Source of the DNA: a virus
Lineage: Duplodnaviria; Heunggongvirae; Uroviricota; Caudoviricetes
Reading direction: 5' to 3' (one strand)
DNA: 21,679 nt
Virus record (IMG/VR): IMGVR_UViG_3300045963_000153
Location: 64,001-85,679 of that record
The position numbers were made by a program, and so were the translations under genes. Of this stretch, positions 1,163-17,353 are shown piece after piece (position 1 is the first letter of the stretch; every line of letters starts with the position of its first letter). The notes under the pieces are model-generated. The model made no database searches. It saw nothing but the letters and a program-made list of their open reading frames with translations, and had not been told where the DNA came from.

Positions 1163-4100
1163 ATGGCAAAAACACTTTACGATTACTTTAGTGGTTTACA
1201 AGATTTGGGAATGCCTGACGAAGATATTGTTAGTCATGCTCATGATACATTAAGTAATATTGTTGGAAAACAAGTTCCAACAGAAGATCTTCCTTTATCT
1301 TCTAGTGATTTGTCTGGTGTTTCTTCGCCAGAATTGGATTTAGCAAAAGCATCTGCAAATAGATTAAATAAATACGGTGATAATAAATCATTTAATAATA
1401 TTTTTAATAAAAATGATTATTCTTCTCCTGCAGATATTTATAATAAAATTAAAGAAAATTCTACTTCTAAACTTCCAGAAGAAGTTCTTTCTGATGAAGT
1501 ACAACGTTATGCTGCTGGTAGAAATACAAAAAGTCCAATTATTCCAGCAAAAATGGATGCAAAAGTTAAATCATATATTCCAGAAGAATTAGATGCATTA
1601 AAATCTAAAATTGCAGAACTTGGAAATAAAACAAAAGAAGCTGTAAAACCAATTATTGATACAGCAGCAGAAGATGCTAAATATGCTAATGTTAAAGATA
1701 TTGAAGATCCTTTAACTGCAGCAATGAATAAAATTAAAGGTCTTAGTGGTGATACTTTAGAATCATTTAAATCTGGTCTTGGTAAAGGCGCAAATGCTCT
1801 TGGTGAATATTTACCTTCCGTTGGTAGTGCTTATAGTTATGCTAAAAGTACTCAGGATGCGAATAATCTTTTAAATCCAGAACAAGACGAAACATGGCAA
1901 GAAAAACTTGGACATGGTATGAGAATGGTTGGTCATGCTGGTGAAGCTGCTTCTGTTCCCATTGCTGTTGGAACTGGTGGATTTGGTACTCCTGCGGCTT
2001 TGGTTTCTGGTATTGGTGGTGGCGCATTAGATCTTGGTGGTAGTTTATTAGAATCATATGGAAAAAATCAAAGACCACAACAAATTGATAAAAAAGTTTA
2101 TAATGGTCCAGTTGGTCCTTTTCCAAAAAATCCAAATGATATAGATGTATTGGAAGGTAGATCTTTAGAAGATTTAAAAAAAGAATTGGCTCCTAATCGT
2201 GGTCCTGCTGGTGAATTTGATAAAGAAGATGCAATACCAAAACCATCTCCAGCAGAATTTAAATCCGCTTTAATTGATGCTGCAAAAAAACACGGTAGAG
2301 ATCCTGCTGAAGTTTTATCACACGCATTTGTAGAATCTTCTTTAGATCCAACAGCAGAAAATAATGGTGCATATGGCCCATTTCAAGTTAGAAAAGCGGC
2401 TTTTAGTGATTTACAAAAAGCATATCCAAAGAAATATGGAAACCTATCTGTAGAAGATCTTAGTAAACCAGAAAATATGAAAACTGGAATTGAAGCTGGT
2501 ATGGATTATTTTGATTTATTAAAAAAACAAAATCCAAACCTTCAACATGATGAAATTTTAAGAGCATTTAATCAGGGTGCTCGTGGTAAAGATAAAGATG
2601 ATGCTTTTGATTATTTAGATAAAGTTCAAGGAAATATTCCTAAATTTCAAAAACTTTTAGCAAGTAATCCTAATCGTGGTCCTGCTAGTACAGAAAATCC
2701 AAATCAAATTACGGATGATCAAATTGAAGAACTAAAAAAACAAGGAAAAATTCCTAATATAGAAGAAAATGAATATGCAGATAATGAATCTTCACAAAAT
2801 TCTGAAGAATCTGATGAAGAGGCACAACCAAATAAAGAATTGAGCAAGAATGAAAAAATATTGGCCTTTCTTCGTTCTGGGAATGATGTCAGCAATTTGG
2901 GTGATAAAGCACCATTGCGTTTTGGTCCTTCCGCTAATCCAGTCGAATATGCTAAAAATCAAGATGACATGGGTAAATTGATGGCATTAAAATCTGCATA
3001 TGATAAATCGCAATTACCACAAAAAGAACCAGCTATTCCTGTAGATGCTGAACAAGAAATTCAAAAACAATCTCAACCAGATATTCTTCAAAAATCAATT
3101 GACGGACAAGTACAGCAAGCTAAAAGTAATCGTGAAGATTATTTAAATGCTATGAAAGCTTCAAATAATAATAAATTTATTTCTGGTCTTCTTCGTGGTG
3201 CTCAACAAGCATCTACTGGTTTAGCTGGTATGGGTTCACATGCTGTTGCTAAAAATGAATCAGATAAAGCACTAGCCGATTTACAAGAATCTTCAAATGC
3301 TCCAATTGATCAACTTAAAAACAAAATGGCGTTTGATAAAGAAGATCCGGCTAATCCACAAGCTGAAAATTTAAGACAAATTATTAAAGCTACTTTTGAA
3401 AAAGCAGGTTTAAAATCTCCAGATTTATCTGCACTTGGATATAATGATATTGTTAAAAATAATTCTCTATTTGAAAAAATTGCGGATAGAGAACTTGATC
3501 GACAATATAAAACTAGTTTATTAAGTCAGCAAATGGCTTTAAAACAAAAAGCTGCTCAAGATAAATCTGCAGATAAAGAAGATTATACAAAACAAAACCA
3601 AGTTAAAGATTTAGCTGGATTTGCTAATGGATCTTCTCGTGGTGCTCAAGAAATTAGAACTTTACATCAACAACAAAACCGTATTAATAATTTATATGGT
3701 ACTTTTAATTTACCAGAAGGATTTAATTTAGCAGAAGCAGCTAAAGATCCAAAAGCTATGCAAATATTAAAAGATCAATTAGCAAATAAGAATATGGCTC
3801 AAGTTAATGAAGCTGCAATTCAGATTTCTGGGGTTTTAAATCAAGGAAAACCTTCAGATAAAACAGTTGGCATGTTGGCACAACAAAATTTACAAAGTAC
3901 TTTAGCTAAATATAAAGGTATGTTATTTAGTGATTTACCACCAGCAAATCAACAAGATATTATTTTAAATGTAATCAGAATGGCAAATACTGCAAATAAA
4001 ATTACAGATAATCAATTAAGACAACGTATTGAAGATCAAGCTGGTTCTTTAAATATCGATCCAGAAAAACATCCTAAAGCGTATGCTGATTATCAATCTG

Positions 4101-11361: not shown

Positions 11362-12489
11362 TTAGTGAAAGTCAGAATTGTCTTTATCTAGATAATCCTC
11401 TGATAAATATTTTAATACTTTTTTTCCAAGAAAGCAAACAGGTTCTTTTGGATCACGAATAACAATACCTTCACGGATCTTTTGTTTTGGTGCTAATACA
11501 GAATCGCCTTTGGTATGTTTGTGCGCCAATTCTTTAGAATGCGCTCCACGATAAATAACTGGAACCATCGGTAAGCCCCGTTCAATACAAAAAAGAACTA
11601 ATTCATCGTGAGTAAGCCAGCGTGTTGATTGTTTATCGTCTGCTAAGATTTTGACATCAAATACAACAATTTTATTTTCGCCATCTTTGCAACCATAAGT
11701 ATAATTTTTTTGAATACCAGAACCATAAATTTCATAATACACGGTTTCGTTTGGTTTAATTTTGTTTTCTAAATCGTATTCTTTAACCATTCTAGCATAT
11801 ACATTTTCCTCATACCAACCAGTATATTTTTTAGATTGCAATTGAACACAATTACTTCCATATGTGAATTGATATTTAGGAAGAAGTTTAAAGAATGATA
11901 ATACTTTTTCAATTAATGTTTTTGGAACTCGTGGTAAAAGTCCACAACGACCATTTGTACCATGAATTTTCTCTGTATACACGACTTCTTGACCTTCTTC
12001 AAAAAGATCAGGATACCATTTAACAGACTCTAACCCATTATACTCATGAAAATATGGATTTTCGTGTTTTTTGTTACGTTCTTTTTTAACCCTTGGCCCA
12101 TTAGCTTGAAAATCTGGTGCTGGTGGTTCGTATTTTGTAATGCCAAGTATTGTAGATACATCATCGCCTTCGGAAATTTCTCCAGTTAATTTATCTTTAA
12201 TATCTGGAATTTCTACAATCATTCCTTGTGATGGAAATTGACGAATACGAATTTGTTTAACTCGTGATTTATTTAATTTAATCTTACTTTCTGCGGTAAA
12301 TAAACGTTCTTCTAGCCATAAAGGAAGAACAGAATCAATTGGAACATAAAGAACCGTATCCCCAATTTTATATTTACCCTTTTGTGTAACAATATTAAAA
12401 TCAAAACATTTAACAATATCTAAACGGTCTGCGTTTGGATGTGAATTGACATCTTTAATAATTGTAATTGGTGTTCTAAATGTTGACAT
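11362..12489 (-). CDS. RNA ligase, Rnl2 family, DRB0094-like architecture, 375 aa
   Basis: Motif I TEKIHGTN (as in T4 Rnl2), III YYEIYG, IIIa VVFDV, IV REGIVIR, V LKYLSEDY. N-terminal HPNADRL..KIGD..LYVPIDS domain as in DRB0094-type ligases. Confidence 0.92.
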   Translation of the reverse strand: MSTFRTPITIIKDVNSHPNADRLDIVKCFDFNIVTQKGKYKIGDTVLYVPIDSVLPLWLEERLFTAESKIKLNKSRVKQIRIRQFPSQGMIVEIPDIKDKLTGEISEGDDVSTILGITKYEPPAPDFQANGPRVKKERNKKHENPYFHEYNGLESVKWYPDLFEEGQEVVYTEKIHGTNGRCGLLPRVPKTLIEKVLSFFKLLPKYQFTYGSNCVQLQSKKYTGWYEENVYARMVKEYDLENKIKPNETVYYEIYGSGIQKNYTYGCKDGENKIVVFDVKILADDKQSTRWLTHDELVLFCIERGLPMVPVIYRGAHSKELAHKHTKGDSVLAPKQKIREGIVIRDPKEPVCFLGKKVLKYLSEDYLDKDNSDFH

Positions 12490-12799: not shown

Positions 12800-13363
12800 C
12801 TATAATTTTTGTAATACTAATTCTATTTCATATTGACCACGACCATGCTGTTCTGGTGGGTCTGTATAAAAATGTCCTTTATCATTATCTCTCATATGTC
12901 TAACCCTAAAACTATTAATTGGTAATGCATCTTCAAATTCTTTTAAAAGTGATGCTGGAGTAAAAAATACCTTATGATCTTCATTAAACCGACTGGGTTT
13001 GTCAAGTTTCTTTTCATATAAATCTCGATGAGGAACAACACAAATTATGTATGCCCCAAATTTAAGTACTCTTAACCAATCTCTAATTACCGCAGATCTG
13101 TTATCGATGTGTTCTAAAACATGTGATGAATAAACATAGTCTTGGCTATTATCTTCAAATGGTAAAACAATTCCATCATAATCGTCTAAAGTTATACCTT
13201 TTGCAGTGGGAAGAATGGGATGTACATTTTCAAGATATCCTTTATATCCAATATCTAAACCATTACCAAACATATATTCAGCAAAAAATCCATTTTGATT
13301 TTTATTTGCCCAAGTTTTTCTAGATTCTTGACCGACATTTAATCCCCAATTTTCATTTATCAT
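12800..13363 (-). CDS. Class I SAM-dependent methyltransferase (Methyltransf_11-like), 187 aa
   Basis: GLDIGYKG (variant motif I), LPFEDNSQDYVYSSHVLEH, WLRVLKFG. ATGA-coupled to the glycosyltransferase. Confidence 0.85.
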   Translation of the reverse strand: MINENWGLNVGQESRKTWANKNQNGFFAEYMFGNGLDIGYKGYLENVHPILPTAKGITLDDYDGIVLPFEDNSQDYVYSSHVLEHIDNRSAVIRDWLRVLKFGAYIICVVPHRDLYEKKLDKPSRFNEDHKVFFTPASLLKEFEDALPINSFRVRHMRDNDKGHFYTDPPEQHGRGQYEIELVLQKL

Positions 13364-14307
13364 TTTAATATCCTGTTAATTTGCTCTATCCATTTATTAG
13401 AAATTAATTGATCATTACATAAATAATCTTGATATGCACAAGTAGTAAAAGAATGTTCGTTTGGTGCAAAATTCATATTTGATTGACAATAACGACATTT
13501 AAGAGATTCATCTGGAACTACGGTATAACAACCTTTGCCCAAAATTCCATCTCTGTATGGTAATCTGTGGTACGGATCTACACTAGTAAATCCAACAATA
13601 ATTGGTGCTTTGCCCATTCCAGCTAAATGGATAAGACCATTATCTACACCAAGTACTCCAGTAGAATTATTCATAATAGCATGAGCTTGGAACAAATTTG
13701 TTTTATCAATTAAATTAATTCCATTTGAATAGTCGGCTTTAAAAGTTCCAATGATTGCTTGTTCTTTATATGATGGAGTATATGATTTACCAATATAAAC
13801 AGGCGTATATCCAATACTAACACAATAATCACTAACTTGTTTTACAATTTCTGGTTTAAAAACTCTAGTATCGCTAGTGTATCCTGTTGTAATAACAAAA
13901 TATTTTTCTGGAAGATTAAATTCAGAAACATCGATTGGATCTAATTGAATATAGTTTTTATACTTGTCTTCAACTGATCTACCAACAATTGATAAAAATC
14001 CTTGATCTGTAAGGTGTGATGCTAAATTTGTAATTTTGTGAACATATGGGCTACGAGCTAATAATTCGTCATTGTATTTACCTTCAGAGTTATTTAAACT
14101 TTCAACAGTAATCATATTATAATCTTCAAACACTTTTTTCGCCAAAGGTTTAAAATATTCATGTGTCCAAAGTTTTATTTCAATATGAAAATGATGATCT
14201 AATACAAATTTAACTGCTGGCAATTGTGCAATAGCATCGCCCAATCCACCTTGATGAAGAACAAAGTTAAAAGGCACTACTTCTAGTTTTGTTCCACTGC
14301 GATACAT
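13360..14307 (-). CDS. GT9-family (ADP-heptose-type, GT-B fold) glycosyltransferase with a C-terminal four-Cys motif, 315 aa
   Basis: N-terminal GGLGDAIAQLP, donor-binding TNLFQAHAIMNNSTGVLGVDNGLIHLA, C-terminal CRYC-x15-C-x6-C. SD AGGAG directly after tRNA-Gln. Confidence 0.88.
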   Translation of the reverse strand: MYRSGTKLEVVPFNFVLHQGGLGDAIAQLPAVKFVLDHHFHIEIKLWTHEYFKPLAKKVFEDYNMITVESLNNSEGKYNDELLARSPYVHKITNLASHLTDQGFLSIVGRSVEDKYKNYIQLDPIDVSEFNLPEKYFVITTGYTSDTRVFKPEIVKQVSDYCVSIGYTPVYIGKSYTPSYKEQAIIGTFKADYSNGINLIDKTNLFQAHAIMNNSTGVLGVDNGLIHLAGMGKAPIIVGFTSVDPYHRLPYRDGILGKGCYTVVPDESLKCRYCQSNMNFAPNEHSFTTCAYQDYLCNDQLISNKWIEQINRILK

Positions 14308-14321
14308 AGTTCTCCTGTAAC

Positions 14322-14396
14322 TGGTAGGGGATGATGGACTTGCACCACCGTAGCTGGCATCAAAAACCAGTGTATTAGCTGCTATACGAATCCCCT
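14322..14396 (-). tRNA. tRNA-Gln(TTG), atypical, CCA encoded, 75 nt
   Basis: Hand-folded cloverleaf: acceptor AGGGGAT/ATCCCCT + A + CCA; D arm GTAT/ATAC with loop AGCAGCTA; anticodon arm CTGGT/GCCAG with loop TT-TTG-AT; variable loop CTAC; T arm GGTGG/CCATC with loop TGCAAGT. Confidence 0.88.
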
Positions 14397-14400
14397 AAAA

Positions 14401-14475
14401 TGGCTCTCCCGATTCGGATCGAACGAATGACCTACTGGTTAACAGCCAGTTGCTCTACCTCTGAGCTACAGGAGA
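14401..14475 (-). tRNA. tRNA-Asn(GTT), CCA encoded, 75 nt
   Basis: Canonical cloverleaf: TCTCCTG/CGGGAGA + G + CCA; D arm GCTC/GAGC; anticodon arm ACTGG/CCAGT with loop CT-GTT-AA; T arm ATTCG/CGAAT with loop TTCGATC. Confidence 0.97.
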
Positions 14476-14481
14476 AAACTT

Positions 14482-15171
14482 TTATAATTCTACCAATAAT
14501 TTTTGATTTTTCTTTAAAGCATAATTAGGAAAAATCTCTTTAACTGGAAGAAAAGTTTCAAATCTTTTAGTAATCTTGAAAAGTTTTTCCAAGTACTTAC
14601 TAGGATTATATTGTCCTGAATATCTTTCTGTCAAGCACAAATCTTCATTTGGTAAAATAAAAACATATATTCTATCACCAGACCTATATTCAGATCCTTG
14701 AATAGCATCAATAATCTTTGTTTCATTTGTTCGTTCTGAATTAAAAGTAGTTGGGCTTAACTGGATCTTTTTACTCCACTGTTTAATGTCTTTTATTCCA
14801 TCTCGAACTTCTCTAATGAATTCATTATAAATATTCACCATCTCTGGTATTGGTTCATCTTTATACATTAAAGTATCTACCATTCGATTTAACATAACTT
14901 TTAATGCTGGTTCTAATGAAGCAGATTTAAGACTAGACCCTTTAATTTTAAGTTTACCTTTTTCATCTAACATTGCGTAATTTTTAGCTTTTAAAATCAA
15001 TACTTTAGAAAATACACCATCATTAGCAAATTTAATATGCTCAGGTAATAGACTATTAATTTCATTAATGAGCAATTGTTGTTCTTCTTTATCAAATGGA
15101 GTTTGATCTGGTTTACAGAACATAATGGAATCTGTATCTGCGTTTGTAATTACAAAATTATGTTGATTCAT
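14482..15171 (-). CDS. polB: Family B DNA polymerase, C-terminal subunit (motif C palm and thumb), 229 aa
   Basis: VITNADTDSIMF (motif C), KAKNYA and KGSSLK. Has its own SD (GAGGT) and an in-frame TAA immediately before the ATG. Confidence 0.9.
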   Translation of the reverse strand: MNQHNFVITNADTDSIMFCKPDQTPFDKEEQQLLINEINSLLPEHIKFANDGVFSKVLILKAKNYAMLDEKGKLKIKGSSLKSASLEPALKVMLNRMVDTLMYKDEPIPEMVNIYNEFIREVRDGIKDIKQWSKKIQLSPTTFNSERTNETKIIDAIQGSEYRSGDRIYVFILPNEDLCLTERYSGQYNPSKYLEKLFKITKRFETFLPVKEIFPNYALKKNQKLLVEL

Positions 15172-15448
15172 TTAATACCTCTACCAGACCATCTGGAAAT
15201 TTAATTCTAACATGTTTATATTTATGCGGTCCAGTTTTCTTTTTTGGTTTCCATTTTAAATTTTCTTTTCTCTTTGCTGTATTTTGATTAATTTCCCAAT
15301 CGTGGCTTCCAGCATCGTCAAACCATAAACATTCAGCGCAACGTGGGCATCTATAAGTTACACCAATACCTACCCATCCACTAGCATAACCATAGCCATA
15401 ACCAGTTTCTAATTTTGTTACTTTTACATGACCGCAAGTATCAGACAT
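15158..15448 (-). CDS. Small putative Zn-binding protein between the two polymerase halves, 96 aa
   Basis: ATG at 15448 with SD GAGGA, an 8-nt overlap with the polB-N stop and a 14-nt overlap with the polB-C start. CGH..CPRCAEC and a basic C-terminus. Confidence 0.7.
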   Translation of the reverse strand: MSDTCGHVKVTKLETGYGYGYASGWVGIGVTYRCPRCAECLWFDDAGSHDWEINQNTAKRKENLKWKPKKKTGPHKYKHVRIKFPDGLVEVLNEST

Positions 15449-16970
15449 TGACTTCTTCCTCAAATTCTGTAACTTCCATAAAATCACTTAACTTTTTTTG
15501 TGCTGCCCAATTAATAGTAAATTCAAGAATCTCTCTACCTTTAGCGGTAATAAATTCAGCACAAGGCATACTATTGAATAGCAAGCCAGAAGCCCCCATA
15601 AAGCCATAAAAGCTGTTTAGAATACCTTTAGCTGTTGTATCCATCTCTTTCCAATAGTTATCTCCAGTTTCTGCTGCAAGCTTTTTATACTCTAACCGCT
15701 TCTCTCTAAAAATCTTGACCATTTGAAGTAGATATGCTTTTGGATCTTTGTCGCTATCATATACTTCATATTGAATCATAATAGATGGATATAGTGCTGC
15801 CAAATCGATCTTAAAACAATTTTTATAAAGCCCCGGAACACCAAACGAAATTGCTCCTTGAAACTTCTGTGCTTCATCTGCCTTTGGTAACGAGTGACCA
15901 TCTTGTAAATATGCTCTTACCATCATTCCATTAATTTTACTACCACTTGCGGATAGAAGAATTTCTGTAAATGGTTTTGGCATCATTGGAGCCATATTAA
16001 AATATAGTGGCCCCATATAATCCCAAATTTTTACTGCATCTTCAGCATCTTCAACTGCATATTGTTTAATTTTAGCCCACTCTGTAGGATTTTTATAATG
16101 ATCCCTAATTGATCCGGCATCATAATATTGTCTGCCTTCTTTTTCAAACCCAAGCTGTTTGATCATCGGTTTCAAAGCATAACTTTCAATGCTTTTAGAA
16201 ACATCAAAACTACTTGCTAGAAAAAATGTATCTACAATTTCTCTACCATATATAGTTACACCTTTATATAAAAGTTCTCTGGTTCCATCTAAACGAAATT
16301 TAGAATCATAATTATTAAATTGTATTGTAGAATTATCTCTCCCCATTTTAAGTTCAGTTTCCAATGTATCACATCTGTTTTGCAAATATGGAAAGTCGAA
16401 AGTTAAAATATTATGACCAACAATTAAAGATGGATTACATTTTCTAACGTATTTACAAAAATCAATAATCATATCTTTTTCAGAATTATAATTATCATAT
16501 GCAAATAATTTATTTACTTGTGAGTTTTTATCTCTAAATGTTGTTGAAATTAATAAAATTTTGGCATCTTTATCTAAACCATCTAATCCTGTAGTTTCTA
16601 AATCGAAAGATAATAAACTAATCTCTTTAAATGTTAAATCTCGGAAAAAAGTAATTCCATCTTTTAGCATGAATGCTTCTTCATTATTATAACAAGAATA
16701 GATATCATTATTTCTGTTTATAGCACGAAATCTTTGCCAATCAGCCTTTTCTTTAAATTGATAACCATATTTATAATAAAGATTCCCACTCATACGAGCA
16801 GCATTCTTACTTAATTTATTATGAGATAAAACCCAATACCGATTGTCTCTAATTTCAGAATTGATATTACCATCTATATCTTGTATAAAGATTTCAGCAG
16901 TACCATCTTTAACTTCAAGACCAACAACTCGCCTTAAATTTGATTTACCATAGATAAGTGAATCATTCAT
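15441..16970 (-). CDS. polB: Family B DNA polymerase, N-terminal subunit (3'-5' exonuclease plus motifs A and B), 509 aa
   Basis: ExoI FDLETTG, ExoII GHNILTFDFPYL, ExoIII YAVED, motif A DLAALYPS, motif B KGILNSFYG, ITAKGR; stops before motif C. Start set at ATG 16970 (ATGA overlap). Confidence 0.92.
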   Translation of the reverse strand: MNDSLIYGKSNLRRVVGLEVKDGTAEIFIQDIDGNINSEIRDNRYWVLSHNKLSKNAARMSGNLYYKYGYQFKEKADWQRFRAINRNNDIYSCYNNEEAFMLKDGITFFRDLTFKEISLLSFDLETTGLDGLDKDAKILLISTTFRDKNSQVNKLFAYDNYNSEKDMIIDFCKYVRKCNPSLIVGHNILTFDFPYLQNRCDTLETELKMGRDNSTIQFNNYDSKFRLDGTRELLYKGVTIYGREIVDTFFLASSFDVSKSIESYALKPMIKQLGFEKEGRQYYDAGSIRDHYKNPTEWAKIKQYAVEDAEDAVKIWDYMGPLYFNMAPMMPKPFTEILLSASGSKINGMMVRAYLQDGHSLPKADEAQKFQGAISFGVPGLYKNCFKIDLAALYPSIMIQYEVYDSDKDPKAYLLQMVKIFREKRLEYKKLAAETGDNYWKEMDTTAKGILNSFYGFMGASGLLFNSMPCAEFITAKGREILEFTINWAAQKKLSDFMEVTEFEEEVNV

Positions 16971-17353
16971 GATATTGGCTCCCAACGTAAAATCGTAATT
17001 CTTTTTAATTCTTCGTCTGTAAATACTTCTTCATGATCCATGCAATGGTCTAATGGACCAAATTTTTTAGCACATTCTAAATATGCTTGTCTATAACAAT
17101 AAACTCTCCATTTTCCAATTAATTTACCAAAAACTGGAGTAAGAAAATAATAATCAATAAATCTACACCATTTTGGAAGTCTATAATAATAATGCATAGG
17201 ATAAAATATATCATTTAAAGAAAAATCATAAGTTAAATGAGCATACCACCTAGTATCACCCCATTTTTCTTTAATTTGACCAATAATCATTCCACGTTTA
17301 GCCCATTTATAAAAAATATTTAATGCTGCACCTATATTATGATTAGGTTTCAT
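16967..17353 (-). CDS. Conserved hypothetical phage protein (QIKEKWG..R.Y family), 128 aa
   Basis: QIKEKWGDTRWY resembles the widespread phage QxKEKFGxLRxY motif of unknown function. Start set at ATG 17353, overlapping the upstream stop. Confidence 0.7.
   Translation of the reverse strand: MKPNHNIGAALNIFYKWAKRGMIIGQIKEKWGDTRWYAHLTYDFSLNDIFYPMHYYYRLPKWCRFIDYYFLTPVFGKLIGKWRVYCYRQAYLECAKKFGPLDHCMDHEEVFTDEELKRITILRWEPIS

Follow-up and report, generated by a model that had tools for sequence, protein, structure and literature searches.

G18 and U55 are taught as near-invariant bases of tRNA. A tRNA-Gln(UUG) gene carried by an uncultured phage has A18 and G55 in their place, together with A1:U72 and A73 at its acceptor end, and raises the question of whether such a molecule works as a tRNA and why its elbow and its acceptor end both depart from the canonical form. 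The gene lies in an 85,679-nt phage genome of 32% G+C recovered from wetland metagenomes; the window analysed here, 21,679 nt long, is the end of that genome, and positions refer to it unless another locus is named. What is new here is a matched pair of orthologues, apparent repeated flips of the elbow within one phage group, the uncoupling of the elbow from the acceptor end, and the finding that A1:U72/A73 has precedents on bacterial chromosomes.

The tRNA-Gln gene

ARAGORN, a check that the earlier note on this DNA had proposed, calls two adjacent genes on the minus strand at default settings, tRNA-Gln(TTG) and tRNA-Asn(GTT), separated by a 4-nt spacer, TTTT (14397-14400). The tRNA-Gln also passes the threshold of the tRNA family RF00005 (52.6 bits; gathering score 29), with the 3' CCA present. 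Because both ARAGORN and Rfam detect the gene, it does not deserve the label "cryptic" that the note had given it. Its full cloverleaf, encoded CCA and four-nucleotide distance from tRNA-Asn, also described there, were confirmed in the sequence at every named base.

Table 1. Features of the tRNA-Gln locus and of related tRNA loci
Feature	Position	Strand	Evidence or remarks
tRNA-Gln(UUG) gene, 75 nt, encoded CCA	14322..14396	-	ARAGORN default; Rfam RF00005 52.6 bits; cloverleaf fold
D-loop A18 (14380) and G19 (14379), replacing G18G19	14379..14380	-	Sequence; L320 orthologue has G at position 18
T-loop U54 G55 C56 A57 A58 G59 U60, UGxRA consensus; G55 is 14343	14338..14344	-	Sequence; PMC7583486; L320 has U55, G57
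Anticodon loop U32 U33 UUG A37 U38; anticodon 14363-14361	14359..14365	-	Sequence; U38 in 5/5 clade tRNA-Gln
3' end C70 C71 U72 A73 CCA, paired with A1 G2 G3 (14396-14394)	14322..14328	-	Invariant in five phage and four bacterial tRNA-Gln
tRNA-Asn(GUU), canonical G18G19 / UUC elbow, U1:A72, G73	14401..14475	-	4 nt upstream of tRNA-Gln; RF00005 65.9 bits
Predicted sigma-70-type promoter, 12/12 match to TTGACA-18-TATAAT	14605..14634	-	In polymerase gene 3' end, 130 nt upstream of tRNA-Asn
GT9 glycosyltransferase gene, starting 15 nt past CCA	13360..14307	-	Pfam PF01075; syntenic in L320, L489, L490
C-terminal half of split family B DNA polymerase; contains promoter match	14482..15171	-	Pfam PF00136; homologues
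RNA ligase gene, PF09414 with PHA02142 domain	11362..12489	-	1.8 kb downstream of tRNA-Gln
tRNA-His(GUG), third tRNA of the genome, A18/G55 elbow	G000:C1:13850-13925 = L319:4851-4926	-
T-loop variants in related phages	L320:9001-9077; L489:1419-1495; L490:9024-9098
Chromosomal A1:U72/A73 tRNA-Gln(UUG), Bacteriovoracia	L387:39-113; L430:22-96; L445:1772-1846; L479:1289-1363
Chromosomal A1:U72/A73 tRNA-Gln(UUG), a Psychrobacter and another gammaproteobacterium	L400:2939-3013; L412:2976-3050

Read on the minus strand from 14396 to 14322, the sequence folds into a 7/4/5/5 cloverleaf that is the same in the minimum-free-energy and centroid structures. All 21 of its 21 stem pairs form and the U13.A22-side pairs are intact; to the features listed in the earlier note we add two wobbles (U31.G39 and G50.U64), an extra D-loop base 20a and a 4-nt variable loop. 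The D-loop reads A14 G15 C16 A18 G19 C20 U20a A21. G19:C56, U54-A58, G53:C61 and G15:C48 are kept, and the molecule departs from the canonical elbow at G18/U55. The acceptor stem opens with A1:U72 (14396/14326), G2:C71 and G3:C70 and ends in A73 (14325); G10 is also present. The folding z-score is weak (−1.29, against −0.74 for the canonical tRNA-Asn neighbour), so the evidence for the gene is its covariance-model score and its conservation. A second, separately assembled contig of 4,412 nt, possibly from the same sampling campaign, agrees at every base of 14137-15300, which makes an assembly error unlikely. The phage tRNA-Gln(UUG) is a real, conserved gene, and it probably works as an elongator tRNA. 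Searching it by BLASTN against cultured phages gave weak matches only, to other isotypes. An alternative register in which U(−1) pairs with A73 was dropped, U at −1 being equally common in the U55 control tRNAs described below.

The tRNA pair is flanked by the C-terminal half of a split family B polymerase on one side and by a GT9 glycosyltransferase gene on the other, the latter followed by methyltransferase and RNA ligase genes. GT9 is probably on the same transcript as the tRNAs, and the RNA ligase may provide a context for tRNA repair. The predicted promoter upstream is the only perfect 12/12 match to the sigma-70 consensus in the genome, where about 0.26 would be expected from composition and nine sites match at 11/12 or better. 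A match also precedes the tRNAs of relatives (12/12 in L320, 12/12 in L489 and 10/12 in L325). It is embedded in frame, in the Leu-Thr ... Tyr-Asn codons of the polymerase 3' end, and conserved in L320; since it is coding in both phages, protein constraint may help to conserve it. Glutamine is encoded by CAA in 866 of 959 cases (90%) and by CAG in 93, and a search of the phage genome for glnS found none. The polymerase is split into two genes (14482-16985, minus strand), an arrangement common to most fetched relatives; in L491 it is a single 721-aa gene.

Covariation of positions 18 and 55

We searched IMG/VR for tRNA-Gln(UUG) sequences with G55 while leaving the D-loop free, and ran a parallel search for U55 as a control. 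Among 48 distinct well-formed G55 sequences, 43 had A18G19, one had GG, one was ambiguous and three had U or C at position 18, whereas G18G19 was found in all 108 distinct U55 controls (A18 in 0/108). The earlier note had read the D-loop and T-loop deviations as paired and compensatory, with G19:C56 kept, and had proposed looking for A18/G55 covariation in phage tRNAs; the coupling found is strict and upholds that reading. At fetched viral and metagenome loci the other isotypes comprised 170 A18/G55, 7 G18/G55, 11 A18/U55 and 1180 G18/U55 tRNAs, numbers that, like all elbow counts here, are of distinct sequences and not of independent events. A18/G55 members were found there in all 20 isotypes, and most G55 loci contain both elbow types. 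In genome assemblies, 68 distinct G55 tRNA-Gln, mostly in Verrucomicrobiota, included 49 with A18 and 15 with C18. A57 leans toward G55, occurring in 21/48 of the G55 sequences against 19/108 of the U55 controls.

Judged from this distribution, the 18/55 change is a real, compensatory covariation, and A18 and G55 would make physical contact in the folded RNA. We found no published description of A18/G55 in tRNA, in a search conducted largely without subscription papers. A natural alternative to G18/U55 that covaries across all isotypes would represent a second solution to the elbow, one in which pseudouridine 55 is dispensable. C18G19 appears as a second partner for G55 (15/68 of the genome G55 tRNA-Gln), for example in the Verrucomicrobiota loci L203, L211, L213, L214, L227 and L231.

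A matched orthologue in a sister phage

The nearest relative, L320, is 72% identical to our phage in the polymerase half, 64% in GT9 and probably 96% in the capsid. Its syntenic, orthologous tRNA-Gln differs at 5 of 75 bases (G18, C32, U55, G57 and U68 in L320), three of the five columns falling in the D- and T-loops. L320 has a textbook elbow, with the acceptor end, D-stem, anticodon stem and T-stem as in our phage. The two tRNA-Gln genes are 93% identical in DNA; since the flanking genes are merely 67-74% identical, the tRNA is under purifying selection. The decay of homologues that the earlier note had named as refuting its reading was not seen, the homologues being conserved.

Three further tRNA-Gln are known in the clade, of which those of L325 and L490 carry A18/G55 and that of L489 carries G18/U55. 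The GT9 tree pairs our phage with L320 as sisters (98/98), the polymerase tree does so for L489 and L490 (100/100), and the tRNA sequences group alike; both trees are small. With one elbow of each kind in each sister pair, the two positions must have switched together two times or more, barring an exchange of tRNAs between the phages; tRNA genes can indeed move in this way. All stems covary, with 97.9% of their cells paired and two-sided changes at 14 of the 21 pairs. By our own count, U54-U55-C56 is absent from 11 of the 28 tRNAs of the phage group, through G55, A54/U58, C54/G55 or U56. Among these T-loop variants, the reversed 54-58 pair A54/U58 occurs in a tRNA-Asp and a tRNA-Asn, and C54 G55 with A18 in a tRNA-Gly.

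A scan of 23 capsid-related IMG/VR records revealed no further tRNA-Gln, the loose G55 pattern there being at chance level. The complete record of L001, the sole viral polymerase locus, contains no tRNA, and searches for related loci with GT9 in viral data and with the polymerase half in metagenome data found none. The tRNA-Gln of our phage and of L320 form a natural matched pair that could test whether the swap protects phage tRNAs from host enzymes reading U55; being near-identical, the pair makes the reason for A18/G55 directly testable with two 75-nt transcripts and single mutants.

The acceptor end and the host

A1:U72, G2:C71, G3:C70, A73 and U38 are present in 5/5 tRNA-Gln of the clade. 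Because all five phages, with both kinds of elbow, keep A1:U72/A73, the acceptor end does not depend on the elbow; the two had been presented as one linked deviation, a view that the same end in the canonical-elbow orthologue of L320 does not support. In the IMG/VR tRNA-Gln(UUG), A1:U72 is as common among the U55 (22/108) as among the G55 sequences (15/48), and the full A1:U72/A73 is rare in both (1 and 2, respectively). A direct search for A1:U72/A73 tRNA-Gln(UUG) yielded 49 distinct sequences, 46 with G18G19 and several of them chromosomal. L400 and L412 lie in a lolB-ispE-tRNA-prs locus, and the L412 Prs clusters with Psychrobacter. L387, L430, L445 and L479 adjoin prs, pth or the gene of a Bdellovibrionota-type protein; the clusters bear the names Bacteriovoracaceae, Bacteriovoracia or Bdellovibrio sp., and all four tRNAs share the loop UUUUGAU with our tRNA-Gln. 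Sampling genomes by pattern gave 0 such tRNA-Gln(UUG) in 401 Pseudomonadota and 0 in 251 Bacteroidota, zeroes that indicate rarity only roughly because the patterns miss many tRNA-Gln genes; a U1:A72/G73 control pattern matched only 1 of 5 genomes.

The identity set of E. coli GlnRS comprises G73, U1-A72, G2-C71, G3-C70, G10, YUG, A37 and U38 (PMC9976931). Our tRNA-Gln has the YUG anticodon, A37, U38, G10, G2:C71 and G3:C70 and lacks U1:A72 and G73, and since these last are identity elements of the E. coli enzyme, charging may be poor in many hosts. U32-U38 marks the tRNA-Gln of gamma-, beta- and a few alpha- and delta-proteobacteria (PMC3927822). Bacterial GatCAB recognises its substrate mainly by U1, and base 20A acts as an antideterminant, lowering efficiency about 7-fold (PMC1635274); in place of the U1-A72 pair and short D-loop that this enzyme favours, the phage tRNA has A1:U72 and an extra base 20a (PMC1635274, PMC2811023). 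Archaeal GatDE does read A1-U72 (PMC2811023), yet the sigma-70-type promoters and bacterial-type tRNA-Asn do not form an archaeal context. The same end in chromosomal tRNA-Gln of Bacteriovoracia and of a Psychrobacter also speaks against taking A1:U72/A73 as an archaeal GatDE signal, as the earlier note had done. Its alternative suggestion of a GlnRS-bearing host gains indirect support from the U1 and 20A traits unsuited to GatCAB (PMC1635274), from the same end in Bacteriovoracia, and from Bacteriovorax marinus, which has GlnRS and AsnRS and lacks GatCAB (PMC4206432). We infer that the host probably has GlnRS, Bacteriovoracia being a candidate.

No host organism could be read from the names of the clusters that contain the capsid, GT9 and polymerase homologues, for the terminase the ESM Atlas returned nothing narrower than Uroviricota, and searches with the helicase and polymerase showed no close relative among cultured phages. 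A73 and A1-U72 each lower the cleavage of E. coli tRNA-Gln by CdiA-CT EC869, an interbacterial toxin (PMC9071432); matching to the host accounts for the acceptor end more simply than avoidance of this toxin. The A1:U72/A73 end of Bacteriovoracia and Psychrobacter widens the known bacterial glutamine identity set and offers a clue to the host of a large uncultured phage family. Two other phages, L346 (3113-3187; a complete 356-kb IMG/VR phage) and L360 (721-795), carry tRNA-Gln near the Bacteriovoracia chromosomal type, a possible host clue; no glnS was found in either.

Comparison with known systems

The phage tRNA resembles canonical bacterial and phage tRNA-Gln(UUG) (RF00005) in its cloverleaf, CCA, G2:C71, G3:C70, G10, anticodon, A37, U38, U54-A58, G19:C56 and G15:C48, and differs from it in A18/G55, which makes pseudouridine 55 impossible, in A1:U72, in A73 and in the extra base 20a. 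With the chromosomal tRNA-Gln of Bacteriovoracia and Psychrobacter (L387, L430, L445, L479, L412) it shares A1:U72, G2:C71, G3:C70, G4:C69, A73 and the loop UUUUGAU, but these have G18/U55 elbows and other D and T stems, and the phage tRNA is no recent copy of them. Phage tRNAs are known to evade host tRNA nucleases by anticodon-loop variants, as T5 tRNA-Lys evades PARIS. Like them, our tRNA-Gln departs from the host consensus at a site that a nuclease could read; unlike them, it is altered in the elbow, and its resistance is predicted from the specificity of the nuclease Cash, whereas the anticodon-arm changes have been tested.

The T-loop U54-G55-C56-A57-A58 fits exactly the UGxRA motif of T-box riboswitches (PMC7583486). 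In the T-box the partner is a second T-loop, whereas here it is a tRNA D-loop with A18. No published description of UGxRA as a natural class of tRNA elbow was found. The discriminator of archaeal tRNA-Gln is A73, as in the phage. The archaeal tRNA-Gln read by GatDE likewise begins with A1:U72 (PMC2811023), but the phage gene has a bacterial-type context (promoters, tRNA-Asn with U1:A72), A37 and U38, and the same end exists in bacteria. Finally, the non-proteinogenic tRNA-Gly of Staphylococcus, which binds EF-Tu weakly, has also lost G18 (PMC4574755); it lacks G19 as well (U18U19 or C18U19), whereas our tRNA-Gln keeps G19:C56 and its position 18 covaries with 55.

Why an altered elbow?

We propose that the gene encodes an elongator tRNA-Gln reading CAA, in which A18/G55 has been favoured by escape from T-loop nucleases, a reading to which we give just under an even chance. 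The upstream sigma-70 promoter would drive a joint transcript of tRNA-Gln and tRNA-Asn, to be matured by enzymes of the host. The tRNA-Gln would then fold into a normal L, for it retains U54-A58, G19:C56 and G15:C48 and would pair A18 with G55; A18 would meet the sugar edge of G55 in the UGxRA T-loop, and G55 would make the turn. This proposed geometry draws on what is generally known of RNA motifs. Charging would be direct, by host GlnRS, since A1:U72/A73 together with U38 reproduces the tRNA-Gln of bacteria that use GlnRS, such as Bacteriovoracia, and is unsuited to GatCAB. Jointly, transcription and maturation, L shape and charging are quite probable, and, granted these, selection through nuclease escape stands slightly better than even.

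In this last step, A18/G55 would be favoured by the loss of the U54-U55-C56 site, a loss that leaves no pseudouridine 55 and would be expected to bring resistance to Cash-type T-loop nucleases. Cash, a type III CRISPR effector, cleaves a UUC motif on the 5' side of U55, and a change at U54 or U55 alone is enough to abolish cleavage (PMC13462974). TruB requires 53-GUUYRANYC-61 (PMC7912444). The ribosome and RNase P read the flat face of G19:C56, behind which 18-55 is a pair with a single hydrogen bond (PMC4810234). Escape from elbow-reading enzymes such as Cash and TruB is plausible, and selection is favoured by the many losses of U54-U55-C56 by several routes together with the scarcity of intermediates. 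Against it, tRNA-Asn and most tRNAs of the clade keep U55, the canonical elbow serves the sister phage L320 well, and one or two resistant tRNAs would not be enough against a nuclease that attacks T-loops broadly. More generally, we tentatively suggest, at odds somewhat short of even, that phage tRNAs have a two-state elbow, G18/U55 or A18/G55, flipped repeatedly to escape T-loop-cutting defence nucleases. If true, counter-defence would act at the tRNA elbow and not at the anticodon, and our phage and L320 would hold a natural before-and-after pair.

It is also possible, if on balance doubtful, that the same working ribosomal tRNA acquired A18/G55 by drift, as a neutral elbow in a dispensable accessory tRNA, with no enzyme avoided. 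Drift would suit the canonical elbow of L320 in an otherwise near-identical tRNA, the canonical adjoining tRNA-Asn, the mixed composition of most G55 loci, the standing of UGxRA as a natural T-loop consensus (PMC7583486) and the many related phages without any tRNA-Gln. The rarity of intermediates (7 and 11, against 170 and 1180) nevertheless implies a valley, yet one crossed at least twice among five phages, and the same group also loses U54-U55-C56 through A54/U58 and C54/G55. That the gene is a decaying pseudogene or an assembly error is highly improbable and largely refuted: in its favour, this one gene departs from the bacterial consensus at several points and many relatives lack tRNA-Gln, but every stem pair forms, the identity to the orthologue far exceeds that of the flanking genes, A18/G55 with A1:U72/A73 recurs in L325 and L490, and the second assembly is identical.

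A non-ribosomal function, as an aminoacyl donor or decoy kept from EF-Tu and the ribosome, is unlikely. It would find a parallel in the staphylococcal tRNA-Gly without G18/G19 and with weak EF-Tu binding (PMC4574755), and glycosyltransferase and methyltransferase genes lie behind the tRNA-Gln. Under an additive EF-Tu model (PMC3239215), our tRNA-Gln has a predicted affinity of −8.1 kcal/mol, indicating a weak T-stem in the tail of the bacterial Gln-UUG distribution (mean −9.1 kcal/mol, sigma 0.56), but the canonical L320 orthologue has the identical T-stem and sole-copy bacterial tRNA-Gln are predicted down to −7.6 (PMC3239215). The G55 tRNA-Gln average −9.27 and the U55 controls −9.30 kcal/mol; because these means match each other and bacterial Gln-UUG, the G55 class, which spans all isotypes, appears to be tuned like ribosomal tRNA-Gln, contrary to the non-ribosomal role raised in the earlier note. 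Our tRNA-Gln also retains G19:C56, whose face the ribosome and RNase P read (PMC4810234), where the staphylococcal tRNAs have U19. Indirect charging, by archaeal GatDE in an archaeal host or by bacterial ND-GluRS/GatCAB, is very unlikely. A1-U72 is the first pair of the GatDE-bound Methanothermobacter tRNA-Gln (PMC2811023), and the distant matches of the polymerase include haloarchaeal viruses. The adjoining tRNA-Asn, however, has the bacterial U1:A72 where archaeal tRNA-Asn has G1-C72 (PMC1635274), the genome holds its nine sigma-70-type promoter matches, bacterial chromosomes encode A1:U72/A73 tRNA-Gln, and amidation by GatCAB depends mainly on U1 and is lowered by 20A (PMC1635274; A1-U72 is not among the variants found there).

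Other RNAs and genes of the phage group

The tRNA-His(GUG) of the genome is more aberrant than the tRNA-Gln and was unlisted by the Rfam scan of L319: besides its A18/G55 elbow it has A54/U58 (T-loop AGCGUCA), a 4-bp T-stem, C1:G72, A73, and A at −1 replacing G-1. At L326:3674-3745 lies a gene resembling a tRNA, with AGC as its anticodon and an unusual T-loop, followed by about 640 nt of non-coding sequence before GT9. Other non-coding stretches between polymerase and GT9 (L325:4247-4540, L489:1002-1419, L322:6480-6817 and L320:8844-8919) may hold structured RNAs. Three related phages carry tRNA-Ile(UAU) (L532:1501-1573, L533:832-907 and L535:640-716), which is rare in bacteria, where a lysidine-modified CAU is normal. 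L320 encodes the anti-CBASS protein Acb5 (PF26761) at 16375-16587. In the genome of our phage, a YrlA-like RNA scoring 40.3 bits, under its gathering score, adjoins a gene that we take, from its sequence, to be Ro60-like; YrlA-like RNAs lie upstream of this gene at L319:2584-2696 and 2830-2888 (minus strand).
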